The notes under the pieces were generated by a model. That model ran no database searches. It was given only the letters and a program-made list of their open reading frames with translations, and was not told the DNA's origin. A program made the position numbers and the translations under genes. Below are positions 16,072-34,737 of a DNA stretch of 41,757 nucleotides, in pieces. Origin of the DNA: Candidatus Nomurabacteria bacterium (GTDB taxonomy: Bacteria > Patescibacteriota > Minisyncoccia > Phycocordibacterales > UBA10002); assembly GCA_943354745.1 (NCBI GenBank), contig CALRDB010000004.1, positions 1 through 41,757 of the forward strand. Reading direction: 5' to 3'. The first letter of the stretch is position 1; the number at the start of each line of letters is the position of its first letter.

Positions 16072-16097
16072 TCTATTTTCTAATTCGCGCGAATAAG
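16072..16097. repeat. Upstream copy of ArsR-flanking repeat (operator-like)
   Basis: TCTATTTTCTAATTCGCGCGAATAAG; 24/26 identical to 16436-16461; core palindrome ATTCGCGCGAAT. Confidence 0.85.
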
Positions 16098-16122
16098 CAT
16101 ATAAGATGTATATTAGTTATAT

Positions 16123-16383
16123 ATGAAAGAATATGAACGTGTGTTAAAAGCTCTAGCAAATCGTAGAAGACTTTCTATTATTGCTATCCTGAAAAAGCGC
16201 AACGAAGCGACAGTGGGAACGATTGCCGACTCTATCAAACTTTCCTTCACATCGACATCCAAACACCTGAACATGCTCGCGCGAGTGGATATCCTGGACA
16301 AACGTCAGCAAGGACTTGAAGTCTTTTATTTTCTTGGTGCAAGGGTGCCGGAGGTTGCGAGACCGATTATCTCTCTACTCTAA
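16123..16383 (+). CDS. ArsR/SmtB-family winged-HTH protein
   Basis: LKALANRRRLSII...TVGTIA...TSKHLNML...RQQGLEVFY; no Cys. Confidence 0.9.
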   Translation: MKEYERVLKALANRRRLSIIAILKKRNEATVGTIADSIKLSFTSTSKHLNMLARVDILDKRQQGLEVFYFLGARVPEVARPIISLL

Positions 16384-16433
16384 ATCCTGTCTCAGGTCGC
16401 TTTTCTCCACTACTTTCGGCATTTTCAGTCCCG

Positions 16434-16471
16434 CATCTATTTTCTTATTCGTGCGAATAAGAAAATAGATG
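16434..16471. repeat. 38-bp palindrome downstream of the ArsR gene
   Basis: CATCTATTTTCTTATTCG-TG-CGAATAAGAAAATAGATG; 18-bp perfect arms, 2-nt centre. Confidence 0.92.
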
Positions 16472-16522
16472 AGGTATGTCGGGAGGAGTGTTTTAGAAAA
16501 AATTTCTTGGTATACTAACGCT

Positions 16523-17011
16523 ATGGAATTTTCGATACGGGAGTATAAAGACAGTGACAGAGACGCGCTTGTGAAATGCATGGTCGAACTGCAGGAGTAT
16601 GTGATGAGTGTGGACCCGCGAATGCTCGTGCAGTGCAAGCCGGAGTTTGGTGAGCTGTATACGGTGTGGCTTTTGAATTTACTGAAGGAAAATAGCGGCA
16701 TTGTTTACTTTGCAGAAGTAAACGGAAAAATTATCGGCTGCGCTGCCGGAATCATGCCCGCACATGAGCCGCAGGAAACGGCTGGCGGAGGACCCATAAA
16801 ATACGGACGCGTTCAAGAAATGTATGTGGACGCAAATTATCGTGGCGCGGGAGTAGGGAAGGTTCTCATGGAGAAGACCGAGGAGTATTTCCGAAAGAGC
16901 GGATGCGATACGGTCTATGTCGAAGTATTCGCCCCCAACAAGAGTGCGCATGAATTTTACAAAATTTGTGGTTATGCGGACAGAGATATTAATTTGATGA
17001 AAAAACTTTAA
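16523..17011 (+). CDS. GNAT-family N-acetyltransferase
   Basis: MYVDANYRGAGVGKVLM, N..AHEFYKICGY; ATG 16523 lies 6 nt after TGgTATACT. Confidence 0.9.
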   Translation: MEFSIREYKDSDRDALVKCMVELQEYVMSVDPRMLVQCKPEFGELYTVWLLNLLKENSGIVYFAEVNGKIIGCAAGIMPAHEPQETAGGGPIKYGRVQEMYVDANYRGAGVGKVLMEKTEEYFRKSGCDTVYVEVFAPNKSAHEFYKICGYADRDINLMKKL

Positions 17012-17052
17012 TTCTGGGTACTATCCATCGTAATTCCAAACCTTAAACCCCT

Positions 17053-17706
17053 ATGATAAAAGCAATCATCTTCGATATGGACGGACTACTCATCGACTCC
17101 GAGCCGATTTGGCAGGAGGCGGAGGGGACGGTGTTGGGAAATCTCGGCGTGCGGTTCGCTCCTCCGGAACTGCGGCAAACCATGGGACTTAAAGTGACTG
17201 AAGTCGTCCAGTTTTGGTACGCACGGCAACCGTGGGAGAATCTTTCGATAGAAAAAACAGCGACCGATATTATGGATACGGTCGTTTCGCTGGTGAAGTC
17301 AAAAGGGACTGCTATGCCAGGCGTCCGTCACGCGCTTGACGTGTGTAAAGAGACGGGCCTTCCGATGGCGATTGCTTCCGGTTCGTTCTTCAGAGTCATT
17401 GAAGCGGTTTTGGAAAAACTCGGAATCAAAAATGAATTCTCGGTTATTTATTCGGCCGAGCATGAACCGTATGGCAAACCGCACCCGGGTGTCTATATTA
17501 CCGCTGCGAACAAACTCGACGTCGCCCCCGAATGTTGTCTCGCGTTTGAAGACTCGCCGAACGGAGTGCTTTCTGCAAAGGCCGCGCGTATGAAGTGTGT
17601 TACCGTCCCTGATGTTCATGTAAAAAGCGACAAACGATTTTTAATTGCCGACCTCAGACTAGCTTCGCTAGACGAACTGACTATCGAACAGTTATCGAGC
17701 CTTTAG
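17053..17706 (+). CDS. HAD-family sugar phosphatase (HxpB/YniC-like)
   Basis: FDMDGLLIDSEP, SAE..YGKPHPGVY, FEDSPNG. Confidence 0.9.
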   Translation: MIKAIIFDMDGLLIDSEPIWQEAEGTVLGNLGVRFAPPELRQTMGLKVTEVVQFWYARQPWENLSIEKTATDIMDTVVSLVKSKGTAMPGVRHALDVCKETGLPMAIASGSFFRVIEAVLEKLGIKNEFSVIYSAEHEPYGKPHPGVYITAANKLDVAPECCLAFEDSPNGVLSAKAARMKCVTVPDVHVKSDKRFLIADLRLASLDELTIEQLSSL

Positions 17707-17729
17707 GTGTCTTTTTGCATACTTCCTTC

Positions 17730-17891
17730 ATGGATAGAAAAATTATTTGGTTGGGACTTTTTGTTGGTTCCTCACTTGGAGGTTTTATCCCAAGCCTTTG
17801 GGGGGCGGGACTGTTTTCTCTATGGGGAGTCATCTTCACCGCGCTCGGAGGAATCGCGGGGATTTGGTTCGGTCTGAGGATAAGTGAGTAG
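17730..17891 (+). CDS. Small Gly-rich two-TM membrane protein (53 aa; absent from ORF track)
   Basis: MDRKIIWLGLFVGSSLGGFIPSLWGAGLFSLWGVIFTALGGIAGIWFGLRISE*; CATACT 6 nt before the ATG. Confidence 0.78.
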   Translation: MDRKIIWLGLFVGSSLGGFIPSLWGAGLFSLWGVIFTALGGIAGIWFGLRISE

Positions 17892-17898
17892 CTGTAAT

Positions 17899-17929
17899 AA
17901 AAAACGCCAGCAACAGTTGTTGCCGGCGT
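17899..17929 (-). terminator. Intrinsic terminator (possibly bidirectional)
   Basis: A6 then ACGCCAGCAAC-agtt-GTTGCCGGCGT (one mismatch), between convergent ORFs. Confidence 0.7.
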
Positions 17930-17959
17930 GTTGAGATTTCGAAATAGAAGAAGAGGAAG

Positions 17960-18376
17960 CTACTTAGGCCTCAGAAATAAAACCCGCCATAGCTGGCTTT
18001 TTGTATAGAGAAGATTCCGATAGGCTTTGCTAAAAGCTTCCACGCCAATCATAAATTCTTGTTGGTAGAACTCCGGCCACTGAAACAAGATCTTGACGAT
18101 ATCGAGCTCTTCGCGAACACGTGCTTCGCTAAACCTCTGTATGCCTTCGTTGCCCACCTCTACGCAAAGTCGCCTCTCAGCTTGATCAAGCAGGTAGCCG
18201 TACAACTTTCCCAGACTGACATGTTCACGCGACATCAGGAAACTAGGGGGTAAAAGACGCGCCCTGTTGCCTTCGAGACGTAAAACTCCTCTGCTCTGTG
18301 CGAATCGGACAATGTTCGTGTACTCCCCAGCTTTAAGAAGTTTTTCAACTTCCTCACCTGTTATATGCGATATCAT
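17960..18376 (-). CDS. Hypothetical protein (138 aa)
   Basis: ATG ORF followed by a minus-strand terminator; no motif recognised. Confidence 0.6.
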   Translation of the reverse strand: MISHITGEEVEKLLKAGEYTNIVRFAQSRGVLRLEGNRARLLPPSFLMSREHVSLGKLYGYLLDQAERRLCVEVGNEGIQRFSEARVREELDIVKILFQWPEFYQQEFMIGVEAFSKAYRNLLYTKSQLWRVLFLRPK

Positions 18377-18384
18377 AGGTAGAG

Positions 18385-18419
18385 AAAAAAATTCCCTGCA
18401 GTGGTAACGCTGCAGGGAA
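18385..18419 (-). terminator. Intrinsic terminator between two co-oriented minus-strand ORFs
   Basis: TTCCCTGCAG...CTGCAGGGAA with A7 on the + strand (U-tract on -). Confidence 0.75.
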
Positions 18420-18442
18420 AATATGGATGACGCCGTCCAACG

Positions 18443-18655
18443 TTATGCGGGAACAAGTTCCACTTCGTTTGCTGTTGCGGTCTCTCGGACCGTGATTTGT
18501 GTAAGATCTCCGCCGACAATGTCGACAGTGACCGCATTTCCCCCGTAGGAAAAATCCTGTGCGATAATCGCAATAGCGCAAAGATCGTGCATTGCTATAA
18601 GATCCTGTGTGAACTGGAGGGCTGTTGGGCCAATGGTTATGGTAGAAGCATTCAT
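18443..18655 (-). CDS. Small hypothetical protein (70 aa)
   Basis: ATG ORF with protein-like composition, ending just before the terminator at 18419. Confidence 0.55.
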   Translation of the reverse strand: MNASTITIGPTALQFTQDLIAMHDLCAIAIIAQDFSYGGNAVTVDIVGGDLTQITVRETATANEVELVPA

Positions 18656-18783
18656 AGAATAACAAAGTTTCAGACTTTAAAGTAACATATTTCGACAGTT
18701 CTAGCAAACTTCACTAAACGTCGGGAGAATGCCGTCAAGAGATCTCTTCCTATTTCGGCTCAAATACGGTATCCTTTGGCCTT

Positions 18784-20256
18784 ATGGCGAAAAATGACAC
18801 GGTACTTAGTTTTGACAATGTTACGTTCGAATACGGGCCAAACAACCCCATACTGCATGAGGTTGATTTTTCGGTGCGGCGCGGAATTAAGGTGACACTT
18901 ATGGGTCAGAATGGTGCGGGCAAGAGCACTCTTTTTCAACTTATCACTGGAGCGGCTGTCCCTGAATCTGGGCGAGTGAATATTACGAACGGGGTGACAA
19001 TAGCCACAGCAAGACAGGTGATACCTCGCGATCAGATGGAACTCACCGTGCGCGAATTTTTTCAGAAATGCTTTACACAAAAAATGTACGATATTGACCC
19101 ACGTATCGATGAAGTATTGGAGGTAGTGAATCTCAAAGGCCACGAGAAGGTACATGACCGCATTGTTAAGTCGTTTTCGGGCGGACAACAGGCCCGTCTT
19201 CTTCTTGCCTCGGCACTTATTCAGAAACCGGACCTTTTGTTACTTGATGAGCCAACAAACAACCTCGACAAGGCGGGTATTGAGCACCTCACGACCTTTT
19301 TGAAGGACTATAAAAAGACGTGCATTGTCATCTCTCACGATTCTGATTTCCTAAACTCGTTTACGCATGGCGTTTTGTATCTAGACATTTTTACGCACAA
19401 GATAGAGCAGTATGTCGGTGACTATTTTGATGTGGCACAGCAAATTACGGCACGACTCGAAAAAGAAAACCGTAAGAATGCCCAGCTTGCTAAGTTAATC
19501 CAGGAAAAGAAAGACCAGGCAAACGTGTTCGCAAACAAAGGAGGCCAGATGCGCGTTGTAGCAAAACGTATGCGTGAGAAAGCCGAGGATCTTGAAGAGG
19601 AGATTGTCGAAGTCCGGAAGGAGGATAAAACTATTCGCAACTTTACGATCCCGACTCAGCAGGAACTCATTGGAGAAATTCTACATCTCACCTCCTGTAA
19701 AGTTCTACAGCACAAGAAAGGGGTCATAAAGCCGGTGGAACGCAAGGTAAACATCACACTAAAGAAAAACAACCACCTGCTTCTTGCTGGTCCGAACGGT
19801 ATCGGCAAGTCAACGCTTCTTGAAGCAATCGCGCACAGCAAAGCGTTGGGGGCGAAGGTAACTGAAGGGGTGAAAATCGGATACTACCGGCAGGATTTTT
19901 CCACGCTTAATTTTGAGGATACGGTGCACGAGTCGCTCTCTTCGGTGATGGACAGACAAACTGAAGAACATTTACGCTCGGTTGCCGCAGGGTTCCTTAT
20001 TACTGGAGATTTGATGCATAACCGAATTAAAAGCCTATCGGAAGGGCAGAAGGGGCTTGTAGCCTTCGCTCGCCTTGTTCTTGAGAAACCGGGCCTCTTG
20101 ATCTTGGATGAGCCGACAAACCACATTAACTTCCGCCACATACCGGTCATTGCCGAAGCGTTAAATAAGTTTGAAGGTGCGATGATTCTTGTCTCGCACG
20201 TCCCAGAGTTTGTCGCGAAAATCCGCATTGACGAAATTCTTGATCTGGAGAAGTGA
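18784..20256 (+). CDS. ABC-F family ATPase (ribosome-associated)
   Basis: Two NBDs (GQNGAGKS, FSGGQ, LLDEPTNNLD; GPNGIGKS, LSEGQ, LDEPTNH), helical linker, no TM. Confidence 0.93.
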   Translation: MAKNDTVLSFDNVTFEYGPNNPILHEVDFSVRRGIKVTLMGQNGAGKSTLFQLITGAAVPESGRVNITNGVTIATARQVIPRDQMELTVREFFQKCFTQKMYDIDPRIDEVLEVVNLKGHEKVHDRIVKSFSGGQQARLLLASALIQKPDLLLLDEPTNNLDKAGIEHLTTFLKDYKKTCIVISHDSDFLNSFTHGVLYLDIFTHKIEQYVGDYFDVAQQITARLEKENRKNAQLAKLIQEKKDQANVFANKGGQMRVVAKRMREKAEDLEEEIVEVRKEDKTIRNFTIPTQQELIGEILHLTSCKVLQHKKGVIKPVERKVNITLKKNNHLLLAGPNGIGKSTLLEAIAHSKALGAKVTEGVKIGYYRQDFSTLNFEDTVHESLSSVMDRQTEEHLRSVAAGFLITGDLMHNRIKSLSEGQKGLVAFARLVLEKPGLLILDEPTNHINFRHIPVIAEALNKFEGAMILVSHVPEFVAKIRIDEILDLEK

Positions 20257-20392
20257 CCCAAAATAAGGAGTCCCGCCTGAGCGGACGACTATATTTTGGG
20301 TCATCCCCGCGGAGGCGGAAATCCAGAGTAATCTACAGTTTGAAGACTGCATAACCACTTTTTTGGGTCATCCCACAAAAGCGGGGATCCAA
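20254..20392. repeat. REP-like palindromic cluster between convergent genes
   Basis: TGACCCAAAATA (20254-20265) is inverted at 20292-20303; TTTTGGGTCATCCC is repeated at 20294 and 20361, each copy followed by GCGG..ATCCA. Confidence 0.7.
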
Positions 20393-20403
20393 AACAAATT
20401 TAC

Positions 20404-21405
20404 TTAGTATTCAAGGCTCTTAAGCACCTTCAAATACATATCCTCCACGATTTTTTCCTGTGTTTTGCCACTTCGGGCGTAGTGGTCGAGACCCGGAGCT
20501 GCGTTCACTTCGAGTACCCAAAAGTTCTTTGGTTTTTCTTCGAGAGTTCCTTCGACCATAAGATCGACTCCACAAAGGCGAAGACCCATGTCCCTGGTTA
20601 ACGCAATAGCGAGTTTTCCAAACTCAGGATGAATATGTTTGACTTCAACCGCGTCGCCACCTGTCGAAAGATTGGCGTTATCCAGAAGAAAGACTTTTTT
20701 AGCTTCGTGTAGCACTGACTGCAATGACAGTTTCTGATTTTTTAGTTTAATTCGGATACGAGGATCGTTTAGTGTTAACTGAGTATCTCGACTTGAAGCG
20801 ATAAATGCCTGTTGCTTACTTTTTAGCAAAGAAAGTATGCTGGACTGTCCATCTCCCGTAACACTGAGTGGAATACGCTCGTATGCGGAAATAATTTTAT
20901 TGTCGAGTACAACAACGCGGTAATCACGGCCGCACACATATTTTTGAACTAGAGCGATTCTGTCGCGTTTAAAAATAGCTCGTAGTGCCCTATAAAATTC
21001 AGTTTTGGAGTGCACAAGCGAAACATTGCTACCCTGACTTCCGCTATTAGGTTTTAAAATAACGGGGAACCCGATTTTCTCCGCGAACCGAAACGCCTGA
21101 TTGATTTTTCTGTCTGAACCAATCGCTTCGGCCCATTCATCTGAATAGAACGTCTTACCGTGGACAGTTGGGTACCCCATGCGCTTCATAAAGAAGTTCG
21201 CGTAGTCTTTATCTTTAGCGATCTCTGAAGCGCCAAGCGGATTAAGATCCAGGCTGGAGTAACGGAAGTAGCGTTTTCTACCGTTTTTAAATGTAATTTG
21301 GCCAACAATCTTCCAAAATGGCTCAAGAATGACAGTCGCACCGATTAAAGGTGCAATTTTCTTAAGTATGGTTCCAAGGATTGGTTGAACTCCCTTTTTT
21401 TTCAT
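20404..21405 (-). CDS. ATP-grasp ligase (cyanophycin synthetase/GshAB ATP-grasp-like, stand-alone)
   Basis: AKDKDYA, PVILKPNSGSQG, GRDYRVVV, ERIP..VTGDG, NANLSTGG, GVDL, LEVNAAPGL. Confidence 0.85.
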   Translation of the reverse strand: MKKKGVQPILGTILKKIAPLIGATVILEPFWKIVGQITFKNGRKRYFRYSSLDLNPLGASEIAKDKDYANFFMKRMGYPTVHGKTFYSDEWAEAIGSDRKINQAFRFAEKIGFPVILKPNSGSQGSNVSLVHSKTEFYRALRAIFKRDRIALVQKYVCGRDYRVVVLDNKIISAYERIPLSVTGDGQSSILSLLKSKQQAFIASSRDTQLTLNDPRIRIKLKNQKLSLQSVLHEAKKVFLLDNANLSTGGDAVEVKHIHPEFGKLAIALTRDMGLRLCGVDLMVEGTLEEKPKNFWVLEVNAAPGLDHYARSGKTQEKIVEDMYLKVLKSLEY

Positions 21406-21452
21406 GTTCCAGAAGGATAGTCGAAATGCTCACGAAAGTATATACTGATGTT

Positions 21453-21782
21453 ATGCAAGAATTTATGAAAGCCGATATTTTCTTCTTTATCACTTCAGTT
21501 GCTGTTGTGGTGGTGACCGTTGGTGTTGTTGCCATCCTGCATTATCTAGTGAAGATTCTTCAGAGTATAAAGAATATTACCGATAGAATAGAAGAAGGAA
21601 GTAAGACACTCGAAGAAGATTTTCAGTCGCTGCGCACTAAGATGAAATCAGGAGAAATTGCACTAAAACTTACACAATCAGTTTTTGAAAAGGCGAGCAA
21701 GTGGTTTTCAAAGTCATCGCCAAGAAAAAAAGCCCGCACGACCCAAAAAACAGCTGAGGAATCAGTTGATCCCACGATCTAG
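21453..21782 (+). CDS. Single-TM coiled-coil protein (DUF948-like)
   Basis: ADIFFFITSVAVVVVT TM then coiled coil; ATG 21453 lies 6 nt after TATACT. Confidence 0.75.
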   Translation: MQEFMKADIFFFITSVAVVVVTVGVVAILHYLVKILQSIKNITDRIEEGSKTLEEDFQSLRTKMKSGEIALKLTQSVFEKASKWFSKSSPRKKARTTQKTAEESVDPTI

Positions 21783-21785
21783 CTA

Positions 21786-23045
21786 CTATCGGTAATTTGC
21801 TTCGGTACCTGCCACGAAGCCAGTCGTCCAGCAGAGTTGGAGCGAGTATCCGCCAGACGGTCGGTCAATATCTAGAATATCTCCGACGAGAAACAGGTTT
21901 GGAAAGAGGCGAGAACGCATTGTCTTAAAATCAACTTCATCCAGAGAGACACCTCCGCTTGTCACAATTGCTTTGTCGGCGCCAAGAAGTCCCTTCACCT
22001 TCATCGGGATATCTTTCAGTAATTTGACCAGTTTCAAGCGCTCTTCGCGAGTGATGGAGTTGCACTTTGTATCCGCACTAATATCAGAAAGCTCCACGAT
22101 AATAGAAGAGAGGGCTGAGGGTACAAGCGACTTTAAACTATTCTTAAATTTCTTCGTATGCTCTTCCTTAAATATTTCTTGTAGCTTGGTATTCAGCATT
22201 CCGTAATCAAGTTCTGGAAGCACGTCGAGTGAAAGTACCACCTCTCCATACTTCAGAAGCTCTCCGACATCCTTACTCATATTGATAACAGTTGGGCCGC
22301 TCACGCCGAAATGAGTAAACAAAATTTTGCCCCTCCGTACTTCCTGTTTAACACCATTCTGAGATGAGGTAAGTTTTATATTTTGCAGACTTACTCCTTG
22401 TAAACGCTTCACCCACACATCTTTAATCGCGATTGGCACCAGTGCGGAATCCGGCTCCGTCACTTTGTGACCGAGTTTCCGAAGCCATGTGAATCCATCG
22501 CCTGTTGAACCTGTTTCGGGTCGGGACTTTCCTCCTGTCGCAATAATTACCGAGCGCGCGCGGATGCCTTCTCCATTCGCGAGGAGGACTCCGGTAATCG
22601 TGCTCTTGTCTACCAGTATCTCAGCAACGGGGGAGTTGGATTGTACCGTCACCTTTCCGACCTTCAGATATTCAACCAACACGTCCCATACCGACTGCGC
22701 CTTCTCGCTCTTCGGAAAAGCACGTTTTTCCGCCTCAATTTTTGTTTCCATCTTCCGTGCATGGAAAAAATCAAGTGTCTCCTTTACTCCCCATTTGGAA
22801 AAGGAGGAAAACAAAAATTTGTCACTCCCTTTAAATTTTGAAAGAAAGATACGTACATCAAGCTCGGCGTTGGTCACGTTGCATCGGCCACCCCCTGTAA
22901 TAAGGAGCTTTTTGCCAAGCGTTTCGTTTTTCTCAACCAAGATAACCGATGCGCCAAGCTCGGCCGCGCGCCCAGCCGCCATCATCCCCGACGGCCCTCC
23001 GCCGATAACGGCCACATCCCAGATTTTCAGACTCCCTTTTTGCAT
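21786..23045 (-). CDS. HI0933/YhiN/BaiN-family FAD-dependent oxidoreductase
   Basis: GGGPSGMMAA, GKKLLITGGGRCNVTN, ATGGKS.P.TGSTGDG, LFTHFGVSGP, VTSGGV, GGYSLQ. Confidence 0.93.
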   Translation of the reverse strand: MQKGSLKIWDVAVIGGGPSGMMAAGRAAELGASVILVEKNETLGKKLLITGGGRCNVTNAELDVRIFLSKFKGSDKFLFSSFSKWGVKETLDFFHARKMETKIEAEKRAFPKSEKAQSVWDVLVEYLKVGKVTVQSNSPVAEILVDKSTITGVLLANGEGIRARSVIIATGGKSRPETGSTGDGFTWLRKLGHKVTEPDSALVPIAIKDVWVKRLQGVSLQNIKLTSSQNGVKQEVRRGKILFTHFGVSGPTVINMSKDVGELLKYGEVVLSLDVLPELDYGMLNTKLQEIFKEEHTKKFKNSLKSLVPSALSSIIVELSDISADTKCNSITREERLKLVKLLKDIPMKVKGLLGADKAIVTSGGVSLDEVDFKTMRSRLFPNLFLVGDILDIDRPSGGYSLQLCWTTGFVAGTEANYR

Positions 23046-23067
23046 GACTACATCCTAGCATAGTGTA

Positions 23068-23097
23068 TTGACTATAGCCTAATTTTAGGTTATAGTC
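23068..23097 (+). promoter_or_regulatory. Promoter covered by an operator-like palindrome
   Basis: TTGACT-17-TATAGT; inverted repeat GACTATAGCCTAA-TT-TTAGGTTATAGTC (23070-23097, one mismatch). Confidence 0.7.
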
Positions 23098-23235
23098 CTC
23101 AGCGTAAAAGTTCCTTCACATCCTCCGAATTCGCTACAGCCTCTAGCGCATAGATTTTTATGCATTGAGGGTTGTAGCGACTTTGTTACTACTTCATTCG
23201 GTCAACCTCAACTGCAATGTAAAGAAAGGAAATAT

Positions 23236-23604
23236 ATGGTTGTAAAGCAAGCTGGTGAGAAACACTTCACCAAAAAGTTCAGGCAGGGTTTTTCACACAG
23301 GGTGATACTTCCGGGTCGGGACCCCGAGGCGCGAGTAAAAGTTACGGACTTTACCGGGCTTGCGGGGCAAAATTTTACTGACGTAAGTTACCCTGTTGAC
23401 GAAACCGTCTGCGTTATTTCTGGACATGCCAGGATCACGGATCATCAAGGCTGTATTGAGGACATTCTGGCTGGCGGAACCTACTACGTTCCCGCTGGAG
23501 AAAGCTACGACATCTGCTTCATTAGGGAGACTAATGTTCTCTGTGTATTTTCACAGGCCGCAGATGGCACGCTCCCCACTGACGAGCCAGATCCTGGGGA
23601 ATAG
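23236..23604 (+). CDS. Cupin-domain protein (EutQ-like)
   Basis: YPVDETVCVISG...AGGTYYVPAG cupin motifs; AAGGA SD upstream. Confidence 0.78.
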   Translation: MVVKQAGEKHFTKKFRQGFSHRVILPGRDPEARVKVTDFTGLAGQNFTDVSYPVDETVCVISGHARITDHQGCIEDILAGGTYYVPAGESYDICFIRETNVLCVFSQAADGTLPTDEPDPGE

Positions 23605-23657
23605 ACGGGAAGAAAGTCGGGGGAGGCAGCGACTTAAATCTTCATCGCCCGTTAGAG

Positions 23658-23695
23658 AAAGTCGCCCGACTCTCCTCTACCGGGCGACTTTTTTT
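23658..23695 (+). terminator. Intrinsic terminator
   Basis: AAAGTCGCCCG-12nt-CGGGCGACTTTTTTT. Confidence 0.8.
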
Positions 23696-23712
23696 ACCCA
23701 AAAATTTCTCTA

Positions 23713-23741
23713 TTGACAAAATGAACCTTTTAATATATACT
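23713..23741 (+). promoter_or_regulatory. Near-consensus sigma70 promoter of the DEAD helicase
   Basis: TTGACA-17-TATACT. Confidence 0.82.
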
Positions 23742-23874
23742 CCTGCCATAACTAAATCTCAGGGGTTTCGTTTTTGGAGATAGTATCTCGTAAAGAACGT
23801 TAAGGCATATGTCTTTTTGAACCTTCGAGAACTGGCCATCACTTAGTTAACGGCTGGAAGGTTACTAAAAGAAT

Positions 23875-25241: not shown

Positions 25242-25247
25242 CCTTAT

Positions 25248-25451: not shown

Positions 25452-25605
25452 CTCTTACGTATTCTTATCCTGTAAGGTTATGTAGATGTTGCTGTTTTTC
25501 CGGATGTATCGTATTATATAAGCGTTACGTTCTGGCCGAGAGGCCTCCTTTTTATTATCTACTTTACTGTTCGTTATTTCGTATCTTGTTCGTAGTTCGT
25601 ACTCT

Positions 25606-27402: not shown

Positions 27403-27432
27403 CAAGTAGAACGTAAAAAAGAAAGAAGATAT

Positions 27433-27459
27433 GAAAAACCGCCCAAAAGGCGGTTTTTC
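27433..27459 (+). terminator. Intrinsic terminator
   Basis: GAAAAACCGCC-caaaa-GGCGGTTTTTC. Confidence 0.85.
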
Positions 27460-27510
27460 CATACAGACACGTACTTGTACTGAAAATTAAATGTAGTGTA
27501 CTATACGACA

Positions 27511-30500
27511 ATGGAAGAAACTCCGAGAGAGATTTTACCTTTGCAGAATGTAGCGGAAACGCCGTCTTCTTTTACCTACAACTGGAAAGCAGGTGTTGGT
27601 GTGCTTCTTGCACTTGGAATTATAGCGGTTTTGGTCTTTTCACTGTCTGGCGCAGGACGAGGTACTCCACGTGGAGTAGCTGAAGAAACCTACACACTGG
27701 TCCGCGATAAGATTTCAAAGAGTGCAGCCATCGTACTCGCGTTGCCAAAAGGCACCACAATAACACCAGTAGAGGCTGCAGAGAAAGTGAAGTTTGAACC
27801 GGCTGTTGATGGGAAATGGGCTGTGGGAGGAAACGCTCAGGAACTCTTTTTTGAGCCAAGTAAAAAACTAACAGAGGGGAACTACTATACTGTTTCGCTT
27901 CAAACAGCCGATGGAGTTCTTTCCAAGGATTTTCTGGTAGACGATGATCCTAAAATTCTTGCCATATTTCCCCGAGCGAAATCCGAAGCTCCCGAGAATA
28001 GTGAAATCACTATCGTCTTTAGCCGACCGATGGTTCCTCTTACGACACTTGACGCGTTGGATGAACGCGATATCCCGGTTGAGATAACTCCTCTCACAAA
28101 GGGAAAGTTTAAGTGGATTAGCACGCGTAATCTGCAATTCATTCCTGAAACGCATCTTGTCCGCTCTGCCACATACACCGTTACCGTTAAAGACGGTCTT
28201 ACGTCTGTTGACGGGCTACCGGTAAAGGGGATCACCCACACCTTTACGACGAGACCACTCCGGTATACCGATCAGATTCCCGGCGTCGACATGACCGTAT
28301 CTTCGTTTCAGGAAAAACTGAATACGATTATGAATGTTGACTCGTTGCCTCCACCGTTGTCCGACGCAGGACCCGCTTTCCCGGTTACATCTCAACAACT
28401 GTTATATAATCAGCCTTTTACCATCAGCTTTAATCAACCGGTTGATATCGAGCGAACGAAAGGTCAGATTTCAGTTAAGCAAAACGGCAAAAACATTCCA
28501 CTTATCTTCGAGTACGGGAAACGAGCTCTGTATAACGAGGGAAGTAGGAGCGAGAAAGAATATATTGATAAATCGGTTATTTCAATATCTAACGCCTTAG
28601 ATCGGAACGGGCGCGCTCGCTTTTGGGATTTTAACACCTCGTACACCGTCGCAATTCAAAAGGCGTACCCGACCGATGGCGACATTGTTCTTACTGCTGG
28701 CAGATCTTTTGCATTCAATGTTTCTGAGGTAATTAGCGGGATAACCGCGGAGTCCGACCGATCTTCACATGTTACACCGGAGATGTTTGATCCTAAAGGT
28801 ATGTTGATAGTGCGTTTCTATGAAGAAATAAACAAAGACGCCAGTAGTTTTTCGGCACCGCACGTAAAGGCGATCAAGTACCAAGAAAAATGTAAATTGG
28901 ATGATATTGGGAATCAAATATACGTAGATGGGAAATGTGTAGTGGAGCCTGACAGGACGAGTATCTCGATTACTTTTGATTCTGACGCGTTTGTGAACGG
29001 GCAAGCATTTGATCTAACGATCAAGAAAGTCGTGAACAGTGCCGGAATGTCACTTCTCCCTCAGCCAGTAAACTATCCGGTAGTTATTTTTCCAAAACTC
29101 TCGATACGAAAGACGTCTCCCGAAAACGGCACAACAGGAGCAGTCCTGACAAATCTTGTTCTTTGTTCAAACACCCCGATTAAAATGCCGGAGGAAAAAG
29201 ATTTCTATGACAAAGTGAAATCAGTGCTCACTATTGGTAAATGGAATTGGAACGAGTCGTATCGTGTCGACGGCTCAAGCACAACAGGTCCATGTGTGAC
29301 AGGCGAATTTTTGACAACCATTCGTTACGGTCTTATTCCGGAGAGCGCTTACACGCTAAATCTTTCGCTTCAGGACGATTTCGGGCAGGAGGCAAAGAAG
29401 AGTTTGTCATTTTCGAGCGGGAAAATTGCGGAAATGTACCGTCGCATTACTCCGCTTCAGAAGGCATACAATGTGACGTCGCCTGAGCGTACTAAGCTCG
29501 TTTTCGGTATTGAAAATCTTGAGTACGTCAACGTACATATCTGTGAAACGGATGCGCTTACCATGATGAAATACCTCGATCGGGAGAGTGCGCCCAAAGT
29601 CATGCTGGCAGGCGAACAATTGTCGTGTATAAAGGGGTGGACAAAACGAGTTGAGCTTCCCAAGCGGTATTGGACAGTGAACTTTTTTGAATTTAATCTT
29701 GCAGACTACGTACCGAATCCGCTCGGACATTATGTCGTCTCGCTTAGTCATCCCGAATATCGCCAGGCCATTTACGATTATCGAACCGGGAAGAATACAC
29801 CCGGTGTGCTTGTGTATGAACATTCACTTCTTACGGTTACACGATTGGCTGTACAGGAGAAAAAAGTTGAAAGTGACGAGTTTATGCCAGATGTATATCC
29901 GCCACTTACTACAAAAGTTCAACTCGCGAGCAAAGGAAATCTGTATTGGGTAACAGAGTTTGGAACTCTTGCGCCGGTGGTAGGTGCCGATGTTACTGTG
30001 TACCAAAAGGGAGGTATATGGGCATCAGGAGGTAAAACCGACGCGGAAGGTATTGCTCGGACTCCTGTCGCGCACACGGCCACTGCGGCAATCGTGACGG
30101 CAGGCAAAGACAGCGCTATTGTCACGGGCGAAACGGATAAGTTCCAGTGGGCACAGTCACTCGCGTCGGCTCAAAAAACGTATATATACAGCGATCGGCC
30201 TATCTATCGACCGACGGAAGACGTATTCATAAAAGGGCTTTACCGAATTGGATACGACGGTACCTATGAAATTGTTCGAGATCGAAAAGCAGACATCGTT
30301 GTCTACGATAGTCGTGGCGAGAAAGTAACTGAAGGCGAAGCAGATATTTCTGAAAGCGGGACGTTTACGTTTAAACTTACGCTTGGCAAAACAGCTCCCC
30401 TCGGTATGTATCGAGTTGAAGCTCTCGGTGGATACGGTTATTTTGAGGTTCAAGAGTACGTTCCGTCCGCATTCAAAGTAGACGTCACTAGTAGCAAAGA

Positions 30501-33500
30501 AGAGTACATCGCCGGAGAAACCATGAACCTTGGTATTGATGGCGCGTACTATTTCGGCGTCCCGCTTGAAAAAGGAGACACCGTGGAGTACTCGATGCTT
30601 GCACAGGACTACTATTTTGACCGCTACAGTGATGGGTGGTTTGAATTCGGTAAGGGTTGGTATTATGGCGGCGGTGGAGGCTACTACGATCGGTTTTTGC
30701 TGCGCGGAAAAACAGTTCTCAACGAGAAAGGAAAAGCGACCATAACCCAATCACTTGATTTTAAGAAATTCTTTCCAGAGACTGAGCAGGATGAAGGAAG
30801 CGCCGACCGAAGCAAAATCTTTACCGTCAACATCACCGTAAAAAATAAACAAGGACAGAGTGTCTCCTCACGTAAATCACTTATTGTGCACAAAGGAGCG
30901 ATCTATCTTGGTACAAATCTTGAACGACGATATTTCGGCGCCGGTGAACAAAATAAGATTCTATTAAAATCAGTTGATACTACTGGCAAGGGAGTGGGGG
31001 CGAGTGGTATTACAGCGACCATCTCTAGAGTGACGTGGGAATCGTACAAGCGACAGGAAGTTGATGGCCGTTTCTACTATCAGTCGACTCAAAAAAAGGA
31101 GCCGGTGAAAACAATTCGCATGAGCACGAATTCGTCCGGGGACGGGACTGAAGCGTTTTCTCTCGACACAGCCGGTCAATATGAGCTGGAAGTGAAAGGG
31201 GAAGACCGTGCAGGCAACAGAGTGGTTTCCTTACTTGATTTTTACGTATACGGAGCTGGAGTTGTTTCAGTCAAACCGACAAACAACGAAACCTTGGAAC
31301 TCGCGGTAGACAAAAATAAGCTCAAAGTGGGTGATGTGGCGAACGTGGTTATCAAATCTCCCTTTGAGAAAGGGAAAGCGCTGGTAACAATTGAACGCGG
31401 TAGAATATTCGAATATCAAATCGTCGATGTTAACCAAAGTCTCATAAACATCGGTATACCGATAAAGGAGGAGTATCTTCCTAATGTTTATTTTTCTGTG
31501 GTGTTACTTTCACCTCGACCTGAGATTAAGTACGGGCAAGTGCAATTTTTAATCAGTTCGGCGGAGAAGGAACTTTTTATCTCGGTGCATTCCGATAAGA
31601 AGAACTATCTCCCCGGCGAGAAGGTACGTCTTTCGATAGAAGCGAAGGATTCAAGTGGAAAACCCTCGCAGTCTGAAGTATCGGTCGCGGTCGCTGACAT
31701 GAGCGTGCTCGCACTTAAAGGAAATCCGAAAAAAGATCCAGTTTCATTCTTTTATGCTGGATTTCCATTGGGTGTCGCAACTGCATCAAATATTAAAAAT
31801 ATTTTGTATGAGGCGGAAGTGCCGAAGGGTACCAAAGGTGGTGGCGGAGGAGAAGATCTGGCAAAAAAGAAACGCGGAGACTTTCGTAGCACCGCGCTTT
31901 GGCAGGGAGTGGTTCAAACTGACTTGGATGGAAAAGCAGAGGTGGCGTTTACACTTCCTGATAATTTAACCACTTGGCAAAGTGAAGTCGTTGGTATTAC
32001 GAAGGATACAAAAGTCGGTGTTGGCTATTCCGAGCTTGTTGCTCGAAAGGAGGTAATGGTAACACCGCTTAAACCTCGCTTTATCGTCCCCGGAGATACC
32101 TTTAAGCTTGGCGCGAAAGTATTTAATCAATCCGATCAACTCATCCGTTTCAACATTAAGCTAGAAAGCGCAACACTTATCCTTCCTAGCGTGAAGAATG
32201 CGTTTGAAAAAATCAATCCCGGAGAATCGGTCGCAGTGTATTTCGACGCCAAAGCTCCCGAAACCACGGAAAAGGGAAGTCACCTCTTCACTATATCTGC
32301 GGAAGGGGGCGACCTCTTGGATAGCGTTGAAGACAAAATAGCCATAACAAAAAATGATACGTACGAATCGGTCGCAACCTCGTTTTCGACTTCCAAAGAA
32401 AAGGCTAAAGAATATGTATTCTTGCCGGCGAATGTTGTTCCTGATAAAGGAACACTGACCATTACCGCTAACTCGACACTCGCGCTCTATCTTACCGACG
32501 CGCTGAACTATCTTATTTCGTTCCCATACGGGTGTTCTGAGCAAATCGCTAGTAAACTTTCGGCAATTGCTGTTATAAAACGCTCCTACGTTGCGAAAAA
32601 TGATCTCGCTACGTTTGAAAAGATGCGCGTCGAACTCGACGGGCAAAGCTATTCTCCCGACGATCTTATCAATATCGGACTTTCCCGAATCTATTCGAAC
32701 CAGACGCCTGAAGGAGGATTCACGTATTACCAAGGAACTCCTTCAAACTATTACCTTACCGTGCATGTGCTAAACACACTTCTTGACCTCCAAAAAGCAG
32801 GTTATGCCGTGAAATCTGAGGTTCGCCAGCTCGCGGCACGGTTTATCGCAAACGGCGCGCTTTACGACGATGTCTACCGCAAAGATCAGGATCTTGTAGT
32901 GCTCGCTGCGTACGCGCTAGAGCGCTCGAGTGATGTTTCTGGAGTCGTTAATCCTCTCTACCGCAAGGTAGTGGAGATTGCGAACACGAAGAAATTTGTT
33001 CGAGAAACGGGCTCGAATCTTTCGCTTAGCTATCTCGCCCTTCTTCTTTCCTCCGGAAATTATTCAATAGCACTTCGCGATGAGGTACTTTCCGCGCTCG
33101 AAAATCGCTTGACGATTGATAGTCGCGGAGCGTTTTTGAAAACCGGAGACCGGAACGTTCTCTATGGTTACTACGAAACACCGATCAAAGACACGGCTAT
33201 GCTTCTTCGTGTGTGGTCTAGTGCCAAGAAGGACCATGAATTAACCGATAAAGTACTGCGCTGGTTGCAAAAAAGTCGATCAAAGGATGGTTCCTGGGGA
33301 TCAACAAATAACACACTTTCCGCGGTTGAGGCATTAACCGACTATATGGAGTGGAAGAAGGAAGCGGATTCAAAATTTGAGCTTTCGATTTTGCTCGATG
33401 GGGTAGAGAAGAGTAAATTCGCTTTTAACAAAGGGGTAAAAGCACCAACAACTTCGTTGGTTATTCCTATTGCCGACCTCGAGAAGGCAAAAATGCATAC

Positions 33501-34152
33501 GATAGACTTTGTTAAGAAGAACCTTAACGCGCTTGCCAATACTTTCTACTATGACCTTTCCCTTACCTATTTCCTGCCAATAAACTCGGTGCCGGCACGA
33601 GATGAGGGATTTGTTGTTGAACGAAATTTATACGCACTTTCGGATGAGAAAATGGAGCGTCCGCTGAGTGAAGCAAAGGTTGGAGAGGTACTGAAAGGAG
33701 TGCTTCGCATTATGGTCCCAAAGGAACGTCGGTTCGTTGCAGTTGAAGACTTTATTCCCGCAGGCATGGAGCTCGTGAATTTTAAACTTGATACGGAAGA
33801 TCAATCACTTCAGAATGCAGAGTCCCAGTACAAGGTAACGGGGACTATGAGCGGAGGTGGAGGGAAACTTGTGGCTGTGTTTGGAATGGGAGGAGCGGAG
33901 GACCTACCTGATGAGGCCTATAATGAAGTTGTCGCTACTCGTCAGAGATTGTATGCCGATTTTGAAGAAAGTCATGACGATCGTCTGTTCCTGTTTAAGG
34001 AAAATCTCTCTGCTGGGGTTTATGAGTATACCTACTTTATTCGCGCACTTGTTCCTGGCCTCTTCCACCATCTTCCCGCCGTCGCAAGCGAACTCTATTT
34101 CCCCGAAAACTTCGGCCGCACAAAAGGTGAATACTTTACCGTTACGCAGTAA
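27511..34152 (+). CDS. Bacterial alpha-2-macroglobulin with Ig-like N-terminal domains and intact thioester motif
   Basis: N-terminal TM, FSRPMV Ig-like domain, SDRPIYRP (MG2), LPDNLTTW, PRF..PGD, PYGCSEQ, GSWGST, VEDFIPAG, ELYFPE; ATG 27511 lies 6 nt after TACTAT. Confidence 0.95.
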   Translation: MEETPREILPLQNVAETPSSFTYNWKAGVGVLLALGIIAVLVFSLSGAGRGTPRGVAEETYTLVRDKISKSAAIVLALPKGTTITPVEAAEKVKFEPAVDGKWAVGGNAQELFFEPSKKLTEGNYYTVSLQTADGVLSKDFLVDDDPKILAIFPRAKSEAPENSEITIVFSRPMVPLTTLDALDERDIPVEITPLTKGKFKWISTRNLQFIPETHLVRSATYTVTVKDGLTSVDGLPVKGITHTFTTRPLRYTDQIPGVDMTVSSFQEKLNTIMNVDSLPPPLSDAGPAFPVTSQQLLYNQPFTISFNQPVDIERTKGQISVKQNGKNIPLIFEYGKRALYNEGSRSEKEYIDKSVISISNALDRNGRARFWDFNTSYTVAIQKAYPTDGDIVLTAGRSFAFNVSEVISGITAESDRSSHVTPEMFDPKGMLIVRFYEEINKDASSFSAPHVKAIKYQEKCKLDDIGNQIYVDGKCVVEPDRTSISITFDSDAFVNGQAFDLTIKKVVNSAGMSLLPQPVNYPVVIFPKLSIRKTSPENGTTGAVLTNLVLCSNTPIKMPEEKDFYDKVKSVLTIGKWNWNESYRVDGSSTTGPCVTGEFLTTIRYGLIPESAYTLNLSLQDDFGQEAKKSLSFSSGKIAEMYRRITPLQKAYNVTSPERTKLVFGIENLEYVNVHICETDALTMMKYLDRESAPKVMLAGEQLSCIKGWTKRVELPKRYWTVNFFEFNLADYVPNPLGHYVVSLSHPEYRQAIYDYRTGKNTPGVLVYEHSLLTVTRLAVQEKKVESDEFMPDVYPPLTTKVQLASKGNLYWVTEFGTLAPVVGADVTVYQKGGIWASGGKTDAEGIARTPVAHTATAAIVTAGKDSAIVTGETDKFQWAQSLASAQKTYIYSDRPIYRPTEDVFIKGLYRIGYDGTYEIVRDRKADIVVYDSRGEKVTEGEADISESGTFTFKLTLGKTAPLGMYRVEALGGYGYFEVQEYVPSAFKVDVTSSKEEYIAGETMNLGIDGAYYFGVPLEKGDTVEYSMLAQDYYFDRYSDGWFEFGKGWYYGGGGGYYDRFLLRGKTVLNEKGKATITQSLDFKKFFPETEQDEGSADRSKIFTVNITVKNKQGQSVSSRKSLIVHKGAIYLGTNLERRYFGAGEQNKILLKSVDTTGKGVGASGITATISRVTWESYKRQEVDGRFYYQSTQKKEPVKTIRMSTNSSGDGTEAFSLDTAGQYELEVKGEDRAGNRVVSLLDFYVYGAGVVSVKPTNNETLELAVDKNKLKVGDVANVVIKSPFEKGKALVTIERGRIFEYQIVDVNQSLINIGIPIKEEYLPNVYFSVVLLSPRPEIKYGQVQFLISSAEKELFISVHSDKKNYLPGEKVRLSIEAKDSSGKPSQSEVSVAVADMSVLALKGNPKKDPVSFFYAGFPLGVATASNIKNILYEAEVPKGTKGGGGGEDLAKKKRGDFRSTALWQGVVQTDLDGKAEVAFTLPDNLTTWQSEVVGITKDTKVGVGYSELVARKEVMVTPLKPRFIVPGDTFKLGAKVFNQSDQLIRFNIKLESATLILPSVKNAFEKINPGESVAVYFDAKAPETTEKGSHLFTISAEGGDLLDSVEDKIAITKNDTYESVATSFSTSKEKAKEYVFLPANVVPDKGTLTITANSTLALYLTDALNYLISFPYGCSEQIASKLSAIAVIKRSYVAKNDLATFEKMRVELDGQSYSPDDLINIGLSRIYSNQTPEGGFTYYQGTPSNYYLTVHVLNTLLDLQKAGYAVKSEVRQLAARFIANGALYDDVYRKDQDLVVLAAYALERSSDVSGVVNPLYRKVVEIANTKKFVRETGSNLSLSYLALLLSSGNYSIALRDEVLSALENRLTIDSRGAFLKTGDRNVLYGYYETPIKDTAMLLRVWSSAKKDHELTDKVLRWLQKSRSKDGSWGSTNNTLSAVEALTDYMEWKKEADSKFELSILLDGVEKSKFAFNKGVKAPTTSLVIPIADLEKAKMHTIDFVKKNLNALANTFYYDLSLTYFLPINSVPARDEGFVVERNLYALSDEKMERPLSEAKVGEVLKGVLRIMVPKERRFVAVEDFIPAGMELVNFKLDTEDQSLQNAESQYKVTGTMSGGGGKLVAVFGMGGAEDLPDEAYNEVVATRQRLYADFEESHDDRLFLFKENLSAGVYEYTYFIRALVPGLFHHLPAVASELYFPENFGRTKGEYFTVTQ

Positions 34153-34197
34153 AACAGCATAGCTCTCTGCATCGATCCGACCTTCTTCACATCTGAA

Positions 34198-34219
34198 ATC
34201 CTTTCATACTTTAAAGTAT
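34198..34219. repeat. Upstream copy of YerC/TrpR-flanking repeat (operator-like)
   Basis: ATCCTTTCATACTTTAAAGTAT, identical to 34702-34723; core palindrome ATACTTTAAAGTAT. Confidence 0.92.
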
Positions 34220-34230
34220 AGAAGTAATGC

Positions 34231-34695
34231 ATGCCGAGATCTAAGCCACAACAGCTTGAAACTAAGGAAAGGTATACACTCCTGAATGAGTTTTGGACAA
34301 CTATCGCCTTGCTTGAAAATGTTGATGAGATAAAGAATTTCTTTAAGGACCTACTTAGTGAAACTGAGGCTCTTATGCTTGCTCGAAGATTTAGGATAGC
34401 TCAGCTTATTTATGCAGGATGGAGTTATGAGAAAATTGAAAAATCCCTGCATACCTCCACTGCGACAATCGCCACTGTGCACTCGTGGCTTGATGGCGGT
34501 TTCGGAGGATATATAGGAGGAATGGCTCGGTTAAAAGTCGAGTTAAAGCGGCAAGAGTCAATCCAGACCAAAAAAAAGCAGGCCACAGATCCGTCATCTT
34601 TTGAATATTTAAAGAAAAAATACCCATTGCATTTCCTGTTGTTTAATATAGCTGATGATGTTAAATACCGCCTTCCCAAACGATTACGAAAGTAA
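34231..34695 (+). CDS. YerC/YecD (TrpR-like) HTH protein with C-terminal extension
   Basis: FFKDLLSETEALMLARRFRIAQLI..GWSYEKI....STATIATVHSWL..GFGGY. Confidence 0.9.
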   Translation: MPRSKPQQLETKERYTLLNEFWTTIALLENVDEIKNFFKDLLSETEALMLARRFRIAQLIYAGWSYEKIEKSLHTSTATIATVHSWLDGGFGGYIGGMARLKVELKRQESIQTKKKQATDPSSFEYLKKKYPLHFLLFNIADDVKYRLPKRLRK

Positions 34696-34737
34696 TTGTA
34701 TATCCTTTCATACTTTAAAGTATGAAAGGATATACAA
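34696..34737. repeat. 42-bp perfect loopless palindrome starting at the base after the stop codon
   Basis: TTGTATATCCTTTCATACTTT|AAAGTATGAAAGGATATACAA (21-bp arms). Confidence 0.95.

Follow-up and report, generated by a model that had tools for sequence, protein, structure and literature searches.

Repressors of the ArsR/SmtB family bind inverted repeats of 12-2-12 geometry and sense metals or thiols through alpha3 Cys or alpha5 His/Asp/Glu sites. Other well-known repressors act by looping between a promoter operator and auxiliary operators, as in lac (O1/O2/O3), gal (OE/OI) and lambda (OL/OR), and in lacZ and galE the second site is intragenic. In the Tus-TerB and RTP-Ter systems an autoregulated gene abuts its own site of ~20-30 bp, the sites are asymmetric, polar fork barriers, and there is one system per genome. 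Within the TrpR family, HisR (YerC of B. subtilis) is a single-domain histidine repressor of fewer than 100 aa that responds to histidine and regulates his and transport genes; its palindromic operator is cacTTTA-N6-TAAAgtg, and it is often autoregulated by a site before its own gene (PMC9413887, in its accessible part). Here we describe two loci in a stretch of 41,757 nucleotides from a Candidatus Nomurabacteria genome (contig CALRDB010000004.1; the whole stretch analysed is called the window below), in which a small helix-turn-helix (HTH) gene, ArsR-like at the first locus and YerC/TrpR-like at the second, is bracketed by two copies of a palindrome. Each locus appears to be a self-contained module, the gene for a small dimeric HTH protein lying between two copies of its own predicted palindromic site. 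The same design is found in three unrelated HTH families of this organism and is Patescibacteria-wide for the long YerC/TrpR-like family.

The host genome (labelled G000) comprises 0.92 Mb in 44 contigs, with 46.7% GC and 99.8% completeness. In the labels used below, G001-G020 and further G-numbers denote relatives, C-numbers the contigs of G000 (the window is contig C4) and L-numbers individual loci. The two modules consist of the following features:

16072-16103, no strand: upstream ArsR-type site, a partial palindrome with core CTAATTCGCGCGAATAAG, centred ~34 nt 5' of the ATG
16123-16383, + strand: minimal ArsR/SmtB-like winged-HTH gene of 86 aa, between alkD and a GNAT gene
16431-16474, no strand: downstream ArsR-type site, 44 bp with 21+21 arms and one mismatch, ~55 nt past the stop
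34198-34224, no strand: upstream TrpR-type site, a 14-bp perfect core ATACTTTAAAGTAT within a 27-nt copy that ends 7 nt before the ATG
34231-34695, + strand: long-form YerC/TrpR-like gene of 154 aa, between a 2218-aa open reading frame (ORF) and a convergent penicillin-binding protein (PBP) gene
34696-34737, no strand: downstream TrpR-type site, a 42-bp perfect palindrome, 21+21 and loop-less

A preliminary description of this DNA had reported one layout for two different HTH genes, with a motif before the start that recurs after the stop, and the coordinates bear this out. At the ArsR-like locus 16072-16097 and 16436-16461 agree in 24 of their 26 nt (two mismatches; 88% over 32 nt) with a start-to-start spacing of 364, and at the TrpR-like locus 34198-34219 equals 34702-34723 exactly over 22 nt (93% over 27 nt) with a spacing of 504. 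The perfect part of the downstream ArsR-type palindrome spans 16437-16474 (38 bp, 18+18 arms, 2-nt centre). Whether the repeats exceed chance was examined by seeking each motif, with up to 3 mismatches, in the 41.7-kb window and in 100 dinucleotide-preserving shuffles; each occurred only at these places in the window, and the shuffle mean was 0. The upstream copy had also been taken for the truncated one, which holds at the two window loci but not as a general rule, the upstream copy being the longer one in the ArsR-like paralogue on C5.

The assignment of the two genes to the ArsR-like and YerC/TrpR-like families was upheld by Pfam and NCBIfam scores above cut-off. The 86-aa protein matches NCBIfam NF033788 (ArsR/SmtB HTH_metalloreg) with 60.2 bits (cut-off 55), SdpR being its second-best NCBIfam match, and lies just above the cut-offs of Pfam HTH_20 (27.2 bits, cut-off 27) and HTH_5 (22.8 bits, cut-off 22). 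Its sequence, read by eye, contains no cysteine and no evident metal site. ArsR-like paralogues number five in G000, and 2-9 matches were obtained per genus genome. The core upstream of the gene, ATTCG-NN-CGAAT, is an inverted repeat with a 2-nt centre and constitutes a putative operator in the gene's own promoter region; since this centre is only ~34 nt from the ATG, the site would overlap the presumed promoter, and TATAAG/TATATT hexamers resembling a -10 element can be seen by eye between the site and the ATG.

The 154-aa protein of the second locus scores 51.2 bits against Pfam Trp_repressor PF01371 (cut-off 27) and 48.4 bits against NCBIfam yecD_yerC TIGR02531 (cut-off 42.2). A TrpR core (residues ~17-95) is followed by a conserved C-terminal extension with a helix at 93-119, a KYPLHFLL motif and a PKRLRK tail, and the AlphaFold2 model (mean predicted local distance difference test, pLDDT, 82) accordingly comprises the TrpR core, a 27-residue helix and two short helices. 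The top Foldseek matches of the model are 3kor, 3frw and 3g1c, with target-normalised template modelling (TM) scores of 0.74-0.86 over ~90 residues; these solved YerC/HisR-like structures match the TrpR core only, not the extension, and the extension with its long helix is missing from short YerC-like paralogues. Judging from the model, the long C-terminal helix could aid higher-order assembly. The right arm of the upstream TrpR-type site contains a -10-like TATAGA in G000, and in the relatives a hexamer seen by eye in the same arm, 6-17 nt before the ATG, reads TATAAT (G017, G014) or TATAGT/TATGGT (elsewhere). A -10-like hexamer inside the arm would therefore imply promoter occlusion and short or absent leaders.

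Both the bracket and the pairing of protein with site extend well beyond the window. TrpR-like orthologues with 46-68% identity occur in 12 same-genus genomes, and a wTACT-N4-AGTAw palindrome is found both just before the ATG and after the stop in all 11 of the 11 loci with readable flanks; the two copies share 19-29 identical nt in nine of these, while the sequence differs from genome to genome. For the ArsR-like genes of the genus, an identical flank word of at least 12 nt is present in 15 of 21 well-located loci, a count that leaves out L050 and L052-L058 (weak tblastn matches, mis-located) and L038 (downstream flank of 70 nt). Their cores follow protein lineage, with ATTCG-NN-CGAAT variants in C4/C5-like proteins and TTCTCAAGAA in C32/C37-like ones. 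After dnaX, the C5-type ArsR gene of G000, G003 and G009 has kept both copies although the surrounding intergenic DNA has fully diverged. Within G000 itself, at least nine HTH genes are bracketed in this manner (four ArsR-like, one long YerC/TrpR-like and four PaaX-like).

A profile-guided scan of the phylum, with one genome per species, yielded 80 TrpR-like loci from many Patescibacteria lineages, 77 of them with adequate flanks. A flank word of at least 12 nt was shared in 63 of the 77, compared with 8.3% of 759 mismatched upstream/downstream control pairs. The possibility, raised in the preliminary description, that homologues lack the flanks was thus not borne out in either the genus or the phylum. 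In the 63 loci the median centre lies 30 nt before the start for the upstream copy and 29 nt after the stop for the downstream copy, and the copies are spaced 448-632 bp apart (median 501). Downstream copies start 1-62 nt past the stop and include the stop codon in two lineages. Of the genes that follow the module downstream, 34 are convergent with it and 27 co-directional, and because the 3' copy is present with both kinds it is independent of the neighbour. The palindrome core changes together with the recognition helix of the protein: TTIASVH goes with TACT-N4-AGTA (15 loci), DTIxRV with GATATATC (22 loci) and DNIAKV with a core of the CCATAATT/CGTAATCC type. This co-variation of helix and core is the strongest computational evidence available, and it suggests that each protein reads its own bracket. 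The idea of a minimal protein-plus-cognate-site module, put forward from the window sequence alone, is consequently strongly supported by flanks that co-vary across genus and phylum and by a recognition helix that tracks the core.

We consider it probable that each of these genes encodes an autorepressed DNA-binding protein with an operator at its promoter and a module-owned operator or boundary at its 3' end. The protein would recognise both copies, site and recognition helix changing together. The upstream copy, centred ~20-40 nt before the start and over the -10 region, is placed such that binding would shut the gene's own promoter, resulting in negative autoregulation. The downstream copy, centred ~20-45 nt past the stop, belongs to the module rather than to the neighbouring gene, and might serve as a second operator that makes repression stronger and sharper through cooperative or looped binding. 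Perhaps it could in addition form a boundary, either a protein roadblock or a hairpin, and so bar read-through and convergent transcription from the regulator gene, a role that would matter because the genome is compact and no Rho was found. The few further perfect copies, some of which follow genes while others precede promoters or occupy conserved positions within a few housekeeping genes, may be the protein's other targets. Among the three mechanisms that had been proposed for the two loci, an autoregulatory looping unit is the one that fits best.

This arrangement shares features with each of the systems mentioned above. Like HisR/YerC, the protein of the second locus belongs to the same Pfam and NCBIfam family and has 3kor, 3frw and 3g1c as its nearest folds, and its TACT...AGTA core recalls the GNACT half-site of TrpR. 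Unlike HisR, the proteins described here have 140-156 aa (154 at the second locus) with a conserved C-terminal extension, the wTACT-N4-AGTAw sites are found at the gene's own flanks and on C23 rather than at his genes, and a second copy past the stop is the rule, a feature not mentioned for HisR in the accessible part of PMC9413887. The ArsR-like gene resembles ArsR/SmtB autorepressors in its winged HTH and in the 2-nt-centre inverted repeat over its own promoter region, which would imply autorepression; it differs from them in encoding only 86 aa without cysteine, in its perfect palindromes of 30-44 bp, in the second copy after the gene, and in the copies within coding regions (IscS, MiaA, TrmD, Tgt). 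As in looping repressors, two identical sites lie within ~1 kb (330-700 bp; 364 and 504 bp at the window loci), one of them at the promoter, and the intragenic site in miaA is reminiscent of the second operators in lacZ and galE. Unlike in lac, gal and lambda, however, the gene of the regulator itself would lie within the loop, no clear helical phasing is seen, and three unrelated families are involved; looping repressors bridge their sites as a tetramer or larger assembly, for which the predicted long helix 93-119 is here the only candidate. Tus-TerB and RTP-Ter likewise pair a small, autoregulated DNA-binding protein with a site directly beside its gene and have few sites per genome, but the sites described here are symmetric and about ten or more paralogous systems coexist. 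No description of the layout was found in limited searches of open-access literature. It is a variation on known themes, namely autoregulated repressors with auxiliary operators and genes flanked by cognate palindromes.

Neither gene had appeared to possess an evident target, a statement that did not survive a scan of the whole genome, which revealed three more copies of the ArsR-type motif and one more of the TrpR-type motif:

C8:7212-7245: extra ArsR C4-type copy, before a glyoxalase-like gene
C18:11534-11567: extra ArsR C4-type copy, between convergent genes
C26:4089-4122: extra ArsR C4-type copy, before a Gmad2-domain gene and after dinB
C23:15108-15137: extra TrpR-type copy, the sole further one in G000

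Gene calls in the genome scans came from a longest-ORF caller, which mis-called C8:7294-7704(-); the real glyoxalase-like gene is 7321-7728(+). The site before this gene is kept between G000 and G020, -10-like element included. The downstream ArsR-type site of the window lies ~25 nt ahead of TGGTATACT, an extended -10-like element of the neighbouring GNAT gene, and its counterparts on C26 and C8 lie, by eye, ~35-50 nt upstream of TGnTAtACT-like elements. The GNAT gene is a possible co-regulated neighbour of the module:

16514-17011, + strand: GNAT acetyltransferase gene (Pfam Acetyltransf_1), with an inferred start at 16514, the longest ORF beginning at 16469

In five relatives the ArsR-type copies number 4, 11, 5, 4 and 1, with 0 for reversed-pattern controls; counts of the TrpR-type copies, also made in five relatives, are 7, 6, 4, 2 and 2. 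The notion of a nucleoid-organising system with genome-wide sites therefore stands in that extra sites exist, but not as to scale, with only 2-20 per genome. Near solo copies, no weaker partner sites were found above a reversed-core control. At the dinB/Gmad2-domain junction, a TrpR-type palindrome is present in G009 (L130) and the ArsR-type copy C26:4089-4122 in G000. Here the position seems conserved, and palindrome identity, hence the protein, seems exchangeable.

Some copies lie inside genes. A 30-bp perfect palindrome of the C32 type is found in frame, read as HSNILKNVGM, inside six housekeeping ORFs of G000, and a degenerate one inside a further ORF of the window:

C1:4755-4784, C18:12804-12833, C2:66937-66966, C3:42087-42116, C5:32343-32372, C35:2481-2510: the six in-frame C32-type copies
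40074-40103 of the window: degenerate seventh C32-type copy, inside the tgt-like ORF 39675-40940

In G000 and G020, the IscS-like genes carry different palindromes (C32-type and C4-type, respectively) at the same codons and with the same centre, the length of the gene being unchanged. In miaA of G012 and G007, RLFARIR is encoded via a C4-type core, where G018 has RLLTRIN and G000 RLETRL. The copies in mutY-like genes, trmD and tgt have kept their positions between genomes, and that in the mutY-like gene of G003 displays a symmetric double change. That intragenic palindromes are insertions was ruled out by these orthologue alignments, in which length is constant and different palindrome types occupy the same IscS codons; they are best read as old, selected sites that evolved in place. 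The intragenic copy of miaA is ~750 bp from the promoter-proximal arsR/miaA site, a pair that would fit a promoter-plus-auxiliary-operator design. Several tRNA-modification genes contain intragenic palindromes (tgt, queA and trmD, and miaA in relatives), among them a 36-bp PaaX-type palindrome (C14:1912-1947) in frame within the QueA-like ORF 1058-2185. Copy-specific, self-complementary extra arms were observed even in coding sequence, at L226-L244 (G042), C3:42082-42121, C32:11563-11602 and C18:12801-12836.

Several observations weigh against autorepression through a promoter operator with a second site at the 3' end. A sigma-70 consensus scan that required a -35 element found no promoter for either gene of the window, so that the promoter overlap of the upstream copies rests on the -10-like hexamers recognised by eye. 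The helical phasing of the two copies shows a mild excess in one bin only, a weak preference at most. In G002 and G017 the TrpR-type sites are confined to the gene's own bracket, and a regulator of itself only would be odd. Elsewhere nearly all copies are perfect (15 of 20 exact in G042, five of five in G041, a complete Kaiserbacteria-titled chromosome), which argues against an ordinary regulon because regulons show graded sites. In relatives, short YerC-like paralogues devoid of the extension also have flank words common to both sides in 3 of 9 loci (TTGCTACACTTTAC). The outer arms vary between copies yet remain self-complementary, something that protein binding alone need not require. Finally, the 11 palindrome families of G000 occupy 10 of 127 convergent junctions, 16 of 541 co-directional ones and none of 112 divergent ones (in a separate tally of sites, one of ten scored as convergent and two of nine scored as intragenic are artefacts of the ORF caller, which over-extended ORFs at C24:4404 and C12:6500); given this avoidance of divergent regions and preference for gene ends, a boundary or terminator role fits better than classical promoter control. 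Such a distribution, concentrated right after stops, is also what could be expected if the palindromes acted chiefly as RNA 3' hairpins in termination or mRNA stability, with the HTH proteins modulating them or being secondary and the upstream copy serving as the terminator of the preceding gene. The downstream TrpR-type palindrome, which takes up the greater part of the 52 bp separating the two convergent stops, was rated terminator-like on the - strand, that is for the PBP gene, by a consensus scan; in G001 no hairpin other than a solo copy lies between pbpC and A2M, and the empty tkt junction of G000 has a canonical terminator in place of the palindrome. The Rho RNA-binding domain PF07497 had no match in the 99.8%-complete G000, although the same search was positive in 9 of 14 control genomes. 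Arm covariation scored 0.180 compared with 0.102 ± 0.018 in shuffles (none of 500 reached 0.180), and 74.5% of cells are paired, against 25-45% with the partner slid, so that copy-specific compensatory arms point to base pairing. This pattern would fit selection for a hairpin or cruciform, but equally palindrome growth by template switching: palindromes tend to be perfected and extended in this way, and symmetric arm growth is then possible with no selection needed. A hairpin, on the other hand, has no need of identical sequence at the two ends of a gene or of co-variation with a recognition helix. Most copies lack a U-tract, while canonical GC-rich terminators with T-tracts are present elsewhere in G000, and the mutual exclusion of palindromes and canonical terminators is not significant under strict criteria (0 of 26 palindrome junctions versus 74 of 754 others). 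We therefore regard a primarily RNA-level function as very unlikely, and keep to the autorepressed module with a 3' operator or boundary.

A selfish or portable unit comparable to REPtrons, in which the HTH protein maintains or mobilises its palindrome family and moves by recombination at solo copies, the site-gene-site arrangement resolving into a solo site and a circle or fragment and re-forming from them, seems to us unlikely too, though several observations favour it. Cassette context varies between genomes while backbone synteny is kept. Three loci that are occupied in some genomes are empty in others save for one solo palindrome: pbpC/A2M (occupied in G000, solo in G001), C8up295/glyoxalase-like gene (occupied in G020, solo in G000), and the locus beside the orthologue of C8:11180 (occupied in G017 and G015, solo in G014). 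At the cysS/NTP-transferase junction, eight genomes have a PaaX-like cassette and G014 has a TrpR-like one. Copy number ranges from 2 to 20 across genomes with copies almost all identical, and G000 also holds three IS200/RAYT-like genes between their own palindromes. The layout parallels that of RAYT genes flanked by repetitive extragenic palindromes (REPs), with which it has in common a gene between cognate palindromes, dispersed copies often at gene ends, co-varying stems and a persistent, mostly vertical inheritance (PMC8266576, PMC3116915 and PMC3337134, in their accessible parts). In contrast to the REPtrons of these sources, the protein is an HTH binder, only HTH domains having been found, and not a Y1 HUH transposase; copies number 2-20 rather than hundreds, far fewer than those of REPs; and each genome has many paralogous protein/palindrome pairs. 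A catalytic domain is absent from both the 86-aa ArsR-like protein and the TrpR core plus helices. The bracket is ancient and has mostly been inherited vertically, the C5- and C37-type ArsR genes being syntenic, and at the tkt junction six of seven genomes have a B-type TrpR-like gene, the seventh (G009) an A-type one. That a cassette always leaves a solo copy was ruled out by empty junctions with no copy at all (tkt in G000, cysS in G017 and G020), and the intragenic copies in IscS and MiaA, at the same orthologue codons and with length unchanged, are not insertions. The search for empty sites suggested in the preliminary description thus gave a divided answer, and of its tiny mobile cassette the varying context and the three loci with a solo palindrome speak in favour, while the site-less loci and the in-place intragenic copies do not. 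Its remark that no recombinase is nearby was confirmed: the neighbours are alkD, GNAT, HAD, A2M and PBP genes, and neither locus adjoins an integrase or transposase. An integron, insertion sequence (IS) or miniature inverted-repeat transposable element (MITE) was discarded on the same grounds, the flanks moreover being whole palindromes and not half-sites. A search of public sequencing runs for this DNA yielded no RNA run and 4 lake-water DNA runs of one study, one of which may be its source. The contigs of these 4 runs, mapped over 15300-35200 of the window, contained no joint removing 16100-16460 or 34200-34700, although contigs cannot reveal rare excision. In our reading the bracket lends the module portability on an evolutionary timescale, but it does not exist for the sake of mobility. 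Contigs from these public runs do break in or beside palindromes, for example at 34725, as is typical of repeats; an assembly artefact at repeats or mere chance is nevertheless of negligible probability, chance resemblance being excluded by the zero shuffle matches and by the same architecture in dozens of independent assemblies. A broader view, which we hold to be doubtful, would see in the autorepressed modules a Patescibacteria-wide class of proteins, each with its own perfect palindrome, from at least three unrelated HTH families: HTH-based counterparts of REPtrons in which the bracket would confer portability and the dispersed copies, some in frame in housekeeping genes, would act as protein-dependent transcription boundaries. 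In these small genomes, for which no Rho was found, they would amount to a level of genome organisation not recognised before.

Gene regulation in the Candidate Phyla Radiation (CPR) is almost entirely uncharted. If a regulator's site is the palindrome flanking its gene, a rule that covers the long YerC/TrpR-like, minimal ArsR-like and PaaX-like families, the binding motif could be taken straight from the sequence for dozens of uncharacterised regulators, and their targets would therefore be directly testable. The layout may be a so far undescribed way to wire or fence off regulator genes, and if the 3' site turns out to work as an operator for looping or as a boundary that depends on the protein, it would represent a distinct wiring principle of compact, Rho-less-looking genomes. 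Perfect palindromes at conserved codons of iscS, trmD, tgt, mutY and miaA raise the question of why operators should lie in coding sequence.

Beside the second locus, the A2M name of the 2218-aa ORF is an earlier reader's label only, and the neighbour on the other side is:

34748-36961, - strand: PBP gene, convergent with the YerC/TrpR-like gene

Among the remaining bracketed genes of G000 are:

C5:721-981: second bracketed ArsR-like paralogue, the same palindrome on both sides
C32:11635-11844: third bracketed ArsR-like paralogue, the same palindrome on both sides
C37, ~6926-7204: fourth bracketed ArsR-like paralogue, the same palindrome on both sides
C24, C43, C17 and C7: four bracketed PaaX-like genes of ~200 aa, with a winged HTH and a Cas2-like PaaX_M domain

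Each PaaX-like gene has its own variant of a TTAGC...ACGGCCGT...GCTAA palindrome. A scan of G000 for palindromes with arms of at least 13 nt returned 148, many of which are GC-rich terminators with flanking A/T tracts, while several families are long, loop-less and AT-rich. When genes of 60-260 aa were searched for an identical word of at least 12 nt common to the 150 nt ahead of the start codon and the 150 nt behind the stop codon, 16 of 579 had one; five of the 16 are bracketed HTH genes, and the others are transposase-like, RAYT-like, GIY-YIG with inverted repeats, or housekeeping genes with an ACGAAT-rich module in the promoter region. The genes for ribosomal proteins L24 and L35, dcd and ndk (C34:7174-7692, C9:1226-1621, C12:10594-11349 and C21:2711-3420) lie between direct repeats of up to ~105 nt, rich in ACGAAT/ATTCG, which resemble either a promoter-region module common to these genes or a global regulator's array. 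The three IS200/RAYT-like genes (C16:941-1714, C19:11974-12690 and C7:5157-5831), with their own flanking inverted palindromes and an LMPNHFHL/HUH motif seen by eye, represent REPtron-like units of the classical kind within a CPR genome. A 38-bp PaaX-type palindrome (C32:7979-8016 and 9609-9646) brackets the gene of a 495-aa SEC-C-motif protein, which is not an HTH protein, and a 93-aa GIY-YIG nuclease gene (C15:7577-7919) lies between 28-nt inverted repeats.

A short YerC-like paralogue of 116 aa (C14:7234-7584) has no bracket and looks like a true HisR-type protein; CTCTTTAC-N4-GTAAAGAG hairpins that match the published HisR operator shape TTTA-N6-TAAA occur at C6:28207, C3:37408, C30:2973, C3:29183 and C14:6959. 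Within the window, 23022-23707 contains a palindrome (23070-23097) and a 122-aa cupin-like ORF (23236-23604). In contigs from two of the DNA runs, 23021/23025 is followed by 39 different letters and then by 23708/23710, which points to a co-occurring strain or relative that lacks the cupin-like gene and its upstream palindrome, although at the 85% likeness threshold used these contigs may belong to another organism.

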